DNA from: Aplysia californica
Taxonomy: Eukaryota
Assembly (NCBI RefSeq): GCF_000002075.1
Contig: NW_004797286.1
Location: forward strand, 826,668-889,337
DNA: 62,670 bases
Direction: 5' to 3'
In this document: one piece after another, positions 60,071 through 60,119 of the stretch
Layout of the letters: every line of letters begins with the position of its first letter
Position numbering within the stretch: the first letter of the stretch is position 1
Notes under the pieces: model-generated
Told to the model about the DNA's origin: nothing
What the model saw: only the letters and a program-made list of their open reading frames with translations
Databases searched by the model: none
Program-made: the position numbers and the translations under genes

Positions 60071-60119
60071 ACCACGAGCACAGAATTCTACACTTAGTGT
60101 AGAATTCTGTGACCACGAG
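60071..60119. mobile_element. P-element-like excision footprint
   Basis: ACCACGAG | CACAGAATTCTACACT T AGTGTAGAATTCTGTG | ACCACGAG. Confidence 0.7.

Follow-up and report, generated by a model that had tools for sequence, protein, structure and literature searches.

The window, a stretch of 62,670 nt from the Aplysia californica genome (contig NW_004797286.1, positions 826,668–889,337), carries the first two exons of a thioesterase gene on the minus strand. The first, non-coding exon is located at 59830–59929, with its extent taken from a single contig of run X8, and the second exon at 55040–55191, where the thioesterase frame begins with an ATG at 55156. The X8 contig follows 59830–59929 on the minus strand and continues at 55162–55191, with a GT donor and an AG acceptor at the joint. 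The second exon matches the start of the Pfam Thioesterase model (E 3e-4, below the curated cut-off). A TATA-like run is found at 60014–60025, and the palindrome described here is situated, with its flanking repeat, 142 bp from the 5′ end of the X8 contig on the upstream side. The promoter-adjacent position upstream of the thioesterase gene given in the initial annotation, which was made from the sequence alone, is thus correct for this site. Other repeats are present in the same region. A foldback-like element (58960–59039 and 59439–59521), whose two ends contain palindromic subrepeats, occupies the upstream part of the first thioesterase intron, a 23–35-bp unit recurs in four to five scattered copies of either orientation over 58059–58851, and inverted arms of 62 bp, 94 % complementary and 1773 bp apart (60603–60664 and 62438–62499), are probably the ends of another non-autonomous DNA element.

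The palindrome is a 33-mer at 60079–60111, made up of two 16-bp arms (60079–60094 and 60096–60111) of 100 % complementarity around a single T. It is enclosed by an exact 8-bp direct repeat, ACCACGAG, at 60071–60078 and again at 60112–60119; none of the three features is assigned to a strand. No other perfect palindrome of the window with arms of at least 12 bp is flanked by an 8-bp direct repeat. Allowing up to 3 mismatches, the 16-mer arm matches the window six times, with 1.04 expected, and it has 3664 exact matches in the 927-Mb genome, compared with none for a reversed control. The palindrome and its direct repeat, whose letters are as first described, are thus real and far above chance.

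The arms are identical to the first bases of the 23-bp perfect terminal inverted repeat (TIR) of a family of long elements (29/31 identity over 31 bp). The 33-mer can be read as TIR bases 1–18 of one end and 1–16 of the other with a one-base overlap, or equally as 17+16. About 210 long copies of the family are present, with 425 long-element ends in total. The 8-bp duplication around 26 paired long copies is exact in 20, has one mismatch in 2 and two to six mismatches in 4. Non-coding copies of 1.2–4.1 kb account for 24 of the 26; these gave no tblastn match and are non-autonomous, with the best pairs about 90–93 % identical. Long copies share a 14-bp motif, a putative binding site, which is found 45 bp inside one end and 56 bp inside the other and is absent from the short palindromic forms.

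A protein-family search gave 83 P-type RNase H matches. Of the 20 best, each taken with 10 kb of surrounding DNA, 19 are without the TIRs of the 33-mer family and only one stretch, L125, has them; the TIRs are likewise absent from L195 and L196, which are relatives at 80 % and 74–77 %. L125 is an element of 4955 bp in which the family TIRs surround an open 855-codon frame. Pfam finds an N-terminal THAP domain in the frame (PF05485, E 1e-11), and PF12017, PF21787, PF21788 and PF21789 (P-type helix–turn–helix, and an RNase H fold whose N and C parts are separated by a GTP-binding insertion) are all above cut-off. The closest PDB match is the fly P transposase 6p5a (E 1e-27), and D275, D367 and E607 of the L125 protein (P0001) align with the fly catalytic D, D, E motifs, for which the residues D230/D303/E531 are given (PMC7776569). 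A short frame farther upstream, which supplies the first two cysteines and stops at a GT donor, is predicted to be a first exon. The flanks of L125 show no duplication (4 of 8 positions differ). A second, partly masked transposase copy, L194, is bounded by TIRs on both sides, is 96.7 % identical over 211 residues and lies in a duplication matching at 7 of 8 positions. A hAT parentage was considered and rejected, as Pfam shows solely P-type domains in the TIR-enclosed frame. Two long elements with this TIR thus carry a P transposase and not hAT, in agreement with the initial annotation, and as judged from sequence the parent enzyme of the short forms is the THAP/P transposase of this TIR family.

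Four runs (X1, X6, X8 and X10) were compared at the 60071 site. The contig of X1, a public run, is an empty allele: position 60070 is joined to 60112, 41 bases are skipped, and the 8-mer is present once, with 8 letters at the joint fitting both sides. This is the single-8-mer allele for which a check had been proposed. The X6 contig reaches 28 bases into the 33-mer and differs at 7 positions over about 500 bp, one of them in the left duplication, and in runs X8 and X10 no contig bridges the site. Recent excision had been read from the lack of mismatches; this is weakly supported, as zero mismatches in 49 bp date little and the X6 haplotype carries its 7 differences.

Short forms of 24–38 bp with 12-bp arms number 569 genome-wide, more than twice the number of long copies of the family. 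Exact copies of the 33-mer account for 251, and exact 34-mers with a TTAA centre occur 65 times. In the first 50 sites of the 569, the lengths are 33 bp (28 sites), 34 bp (10), 36 bp (4) and 30 bp (3), with one site each at 27, 28, 32, 35 and 38 bp; the 8-bp duplication is exact at 42 of these sites, has one mismatch at 6 and more at 2. Among the first 30 exact 33-mers, with the site at 60079 included, the duplication is exact in 26 and has one mismatch in 4, is exact solely at length 8, and comprises 29 distinct 8-mers. A larger sample gave an exact 8-bp duplication at 44 of the 49 33-mers examined. The expectation of 8-bp duplications varying from site to site thus holds for the 33-bp class.

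Longer forms follow a different pattern. Forms of up to 54 bp number 2082, leaving about 1500 (2082 minus 569) at 39–54 bp, and 37 of the first 50 sites among the forms up to 54 bp hold a 41–52-bp form with common flanks. This form is an old scar that was copied along with a different repeat around it, and judged by the first 50 sites most of the 39–54-bp forms are of this kind. Two are present in the window on the plus strand, namely an older 46-bp scar of the same P family with a templated insert, a passenger in another repeat, at 16825–16870, and a second 46-bp passenger scar with the same flanks at 17270–17315. Copies sharing the same flank, named at the outset as evidence against excision, are therefore a property of this separate repeat-borne form and not of the 33-bp class. 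In a sample of a high-copy host repeat (30 of 40 scored matches fetched, from 1615 candidates), 41 copies show one scar position: 37 are empty there, 1 is interrupted by other sequence and 3 have scars of 32, 33 and 34 bp. A tree of 38 host-repeat copies places the copies with 33 and 34 bp as sisters, 2.4 % apart, and the copy with 32 bp elsewhere; the gap between the sister copies could equally be a one-base indel.

The 33-mer is interpreted as both tips of a resident P-superfamily transposon, flanked on either side by a copy of its 8-bp target duplication, and it is very probably an excision scar mended by end joining. The duplications, the TIR identity, the P transposase and the empty allele all support the P-type excision footprint first proposed, in mechanism as well as in superfamily. 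A family member first inserted and duplicated 8 bp, as the empty allele and the duplications at long copies show. A THAP/P transposase, likely supplied in trans, would then have cut at the 3′ ends of the element and, on the other strand, deep inside the TIRs. Going by the fly enzyme and the limit on arm length, this would leave TIR-derived single-stranded 3′ tails on the chromosome, which may have been joined via 1–3 paired tip bases and then filled in. With 18-nt tails ending in TTA, pairing of A18 with T16 would yield the 33-mer and pairing of TA with TA the 34-mer. The scar would be inert because it is without the subterminal motif carried at both ends of the long copies. Varied junctions, with inserts copied from the arms, resemble fly repair junctions (PMC2895639, Table 1) and favour excision, as do the scars of three lengths at one host-repeat position and the scars of a second P family. 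The 251 identical 33-mers, which are more uniform than fly junctions, count against it, and so do the unduplicated flanks of L125 and the failure to find a full element at the scar sites compared.

Such identical copies in differing 8-bp duplications could also reflect a scar of one or a few origins that was afterwards mobilized by the P transposase and multiplied as an ultra-small non-autonomous element. Likewise, no full element was found at a scar site in the 4 runs at 60071, among 282 ends compared by flank, or among the 41 host-repeat copies. This spread is nevertheless improbable, as the 33-mer is without the motif located 45 and 56 bp inside the long-copy ends, and fly P cannot do without 138 and 216 bp of terminal sequence (PMC1562414). 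Additionally, dozens of one-off junctions each lie in their own exact duplication, and a second family of low copy number, described below, shows the same pattern.

Under excision with end joining, the arms should bear on the depth of the cut. In 86 scars (172 arms) the match to the TIR extends to 18 bases in 87 arms, 16 in 60, 17 in 8, fewer than 16 in 14 and more than 18 in 3. Arms of 15–17 bp had been expected, and the TIR match in fact reaches 16–18 bases. The limit at base 18, passed by 3 of the 172 arms, marks an enzyme cut and not random deletion. A transposase-independent internal deletion between the TIRs, by slippage or aborted gap repair at microhomology, is accordingly highly improbable. 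One of the 50 short forms (L058) does join via a 5-bp microhomology at TIR bases 19–23, yet that product is rare and not the mode, and arms stop at 18 even though the perfect TIR is 23 bp long.

The excision itself could also have started from the 17-nt cut that is established for the fly enzyme (PMC7776569), with the 33- and 34-mers formed as 17+16 and 17+17 by microhomology-free classical end joining and gap filling. The sums agree, many inserted forms read 17 + insert + 17, and 50 unselected scars scored at a tail length N of 17 give 35 blunt joins, 2 microhomology joins and 13 insertions. At N=18 the 50 scars give 3 blunt joins, 35 microhomology joins and 12 insertions, with one more added by larger N. 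With a 17-nt cut, 70 % of the joins would have to be blunt, compared with 1 of 66 fly junctions by our own count (47 microhomology, 1 blunt and 18 insertion; PMC2895639, Table 1) in a table that covers Rad51 mutants of another phylum and contains short joints a 12-bp-arm pattern would miss. Blunt 17+17 and 16+17 joins are each recorded once in flies (Table 3 of the same paper). In 21 scars of at least 35 bp, partly chosen by a pattern requiring 17 and 16 bases, base 18 is matched in 24 of the 30 arms reaching 17 and base 19 in 1 of 24, with the caveat that A18 could also come from synthesis templated on the opposite tail. The second family would moreover need at least 18 on one side, or an identical inserted base at 5 of 12 sites. 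On balance, an inner cut at 18 nt fits the junctions better and is reasonably probable for the 33-mer family; 17 nt keeps an appreciable but smaller chance, and we regard the complete 17-nt scheme with classical end joining as somewhat doubtful. Of the cleavage stagger that the initial annotation took to be the same as in the fly, the long stagger is supported by the limit at base 18, and its length of 17 nt is in doubt.

The second family is represented by two elements of about 5.1 kb (L128:2199–7370 and L129:2272–7369) with 16-bp perfect TIRs and exact 8-bp duplications, L129 having an open 892-codon frame. Its 12 scars all lie in exact 8-bp duplications, with a mode at 35 bp (five scars). 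Scored over the 12, N=17 needs insertions in 6, N=18 gives 5 blunt joins and N=19 gives microhomology in 11. Four of the 35-mers share an identical left/right arrangement, as a C19:G17 pair predicts, and tails of 18–19 nt are likely for this family. A third family has an element with unequal ends (L131:2129–7244) and one 38-bp scar (L174:1501–1538), which keeps 15–17 bases of one end and 21–23 of a variant of the other, perhaps as if the cut had followed a sequence lying 3 bp deeper at one end. When 642 kb of fetched DNA was scanned blindly for further forms with TIRs inside a duplication, only this known scar came up. Cut depth may be family-dependent and not fixed at the 17 nt of the fly, with 18 nt in the 33-mer family, 19 nt in the second and, at one end of the third, perhaps 21 or more; taken as a whole, we consider this reading evenly balanced.

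The mechanism is one already known, that of fly P excision (PMC7776569). Drosophila melanogaster P and the 33-mer family share the 8-bp duplication and TIR-retaining joints between the duplications (PMC7776569, PMC2895639), microhomology joins and templated insertions (PMC2895639), and the domain order and catalytic acidic residues of the transposase (PMC7776569). Both have an unequally spaced subterminal motif, with a difference of 12 bp in the fly (PMC7776569) and 11 bp here (45 vs 56), and both have a palindromic target motif extending 3 bp past the duplication (PMC3276498). In contrast, the TIR differs, the Aplysia tails are likely 18 nt (first family) and 18–19 nt (second family) as opposed to 17, one junction makes up 251 of the 569 short forms, and the Aplysia scars are natural germ-line alleles in hundreds. 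P-MITEs of Anopheles gambiae are also non-autonomous, with P-type TIRs, 8-bp duplications and unrelated interiors (PMC1562414), and fit the 1.2–4.1-kb copies. They keep about 100 bp per end, while the 33-mer keeps 16–18 bases without the subterminal motif, and the 33-mer was rejected as a self-mobile P-MITE on these grounds and on its length of 33 bp. The word ‘footprint’ does not occur in the main text of that paper (PMC1562414). Zebrafish Pdre2/THAP9 is a further non-insect P-type transposase with TIRs and an 8-bp duplication, for which excision has been demonstrated; unlike here, deletions are described at the excision sites, and the relevant passages give neither a cut depth nor a genome-wide class of scars (PMC10983969). 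In a literature search by title and start of abstract, with most subscription journals and Repbase outside its coverage, nothing was found on genome-wide natural P scars or on an 18-nt cut.

The long staggered cut, mapped in the fly enzyme, is the hallmark of P transposases. With hundreds of natural scars linked to a P transposase in a distant animal, a long stagger is shown to be a general feature, and its length seems to differ between families. A family-varying stagger bears on how P transposase measures its second cut; a review states that the order and mechanism of P cleavage are not known (PMC7776569). If the stagger does vary in this way, the sequence of fossil scars would suffice to read the depth of the cut and the route of germ-line repair in any P family. 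The scars also record germ-line excision rates and repair outcomes, add 41-bp insertion polymorphisms (at 60071 a short way 5′ of a gene start), and lead to a transposase that looks intact and should be assayable.

Target sites of the family are GC-rich. Over 78 sites the GC content is 55 %, a symmetric T is found 3 bases outside the duplication in 81 %, and G is the first base in 52 %. A general preference for gene 5′ ends, as had been suggested, is not apparent by a GC/CpG proxy for promoter bias, in which the flanks of 30 scars show no more GC or CpG than sequence 1.2–1.4 kb away (p 0.95 and 0.23). Both transposase copies contain a degenerate 22-bp scar of their own family within an 8-bp duplication (L125:7423–7444 and L194:1318–1339), about 160 bp inside the left end and directly 5′ of the first exon. 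Scars are often paired, 60 bp to 3 kb apart and with differing duplications (L173, L214, L215, L217, L219 and L058), which may point to hot spots or local hopping.
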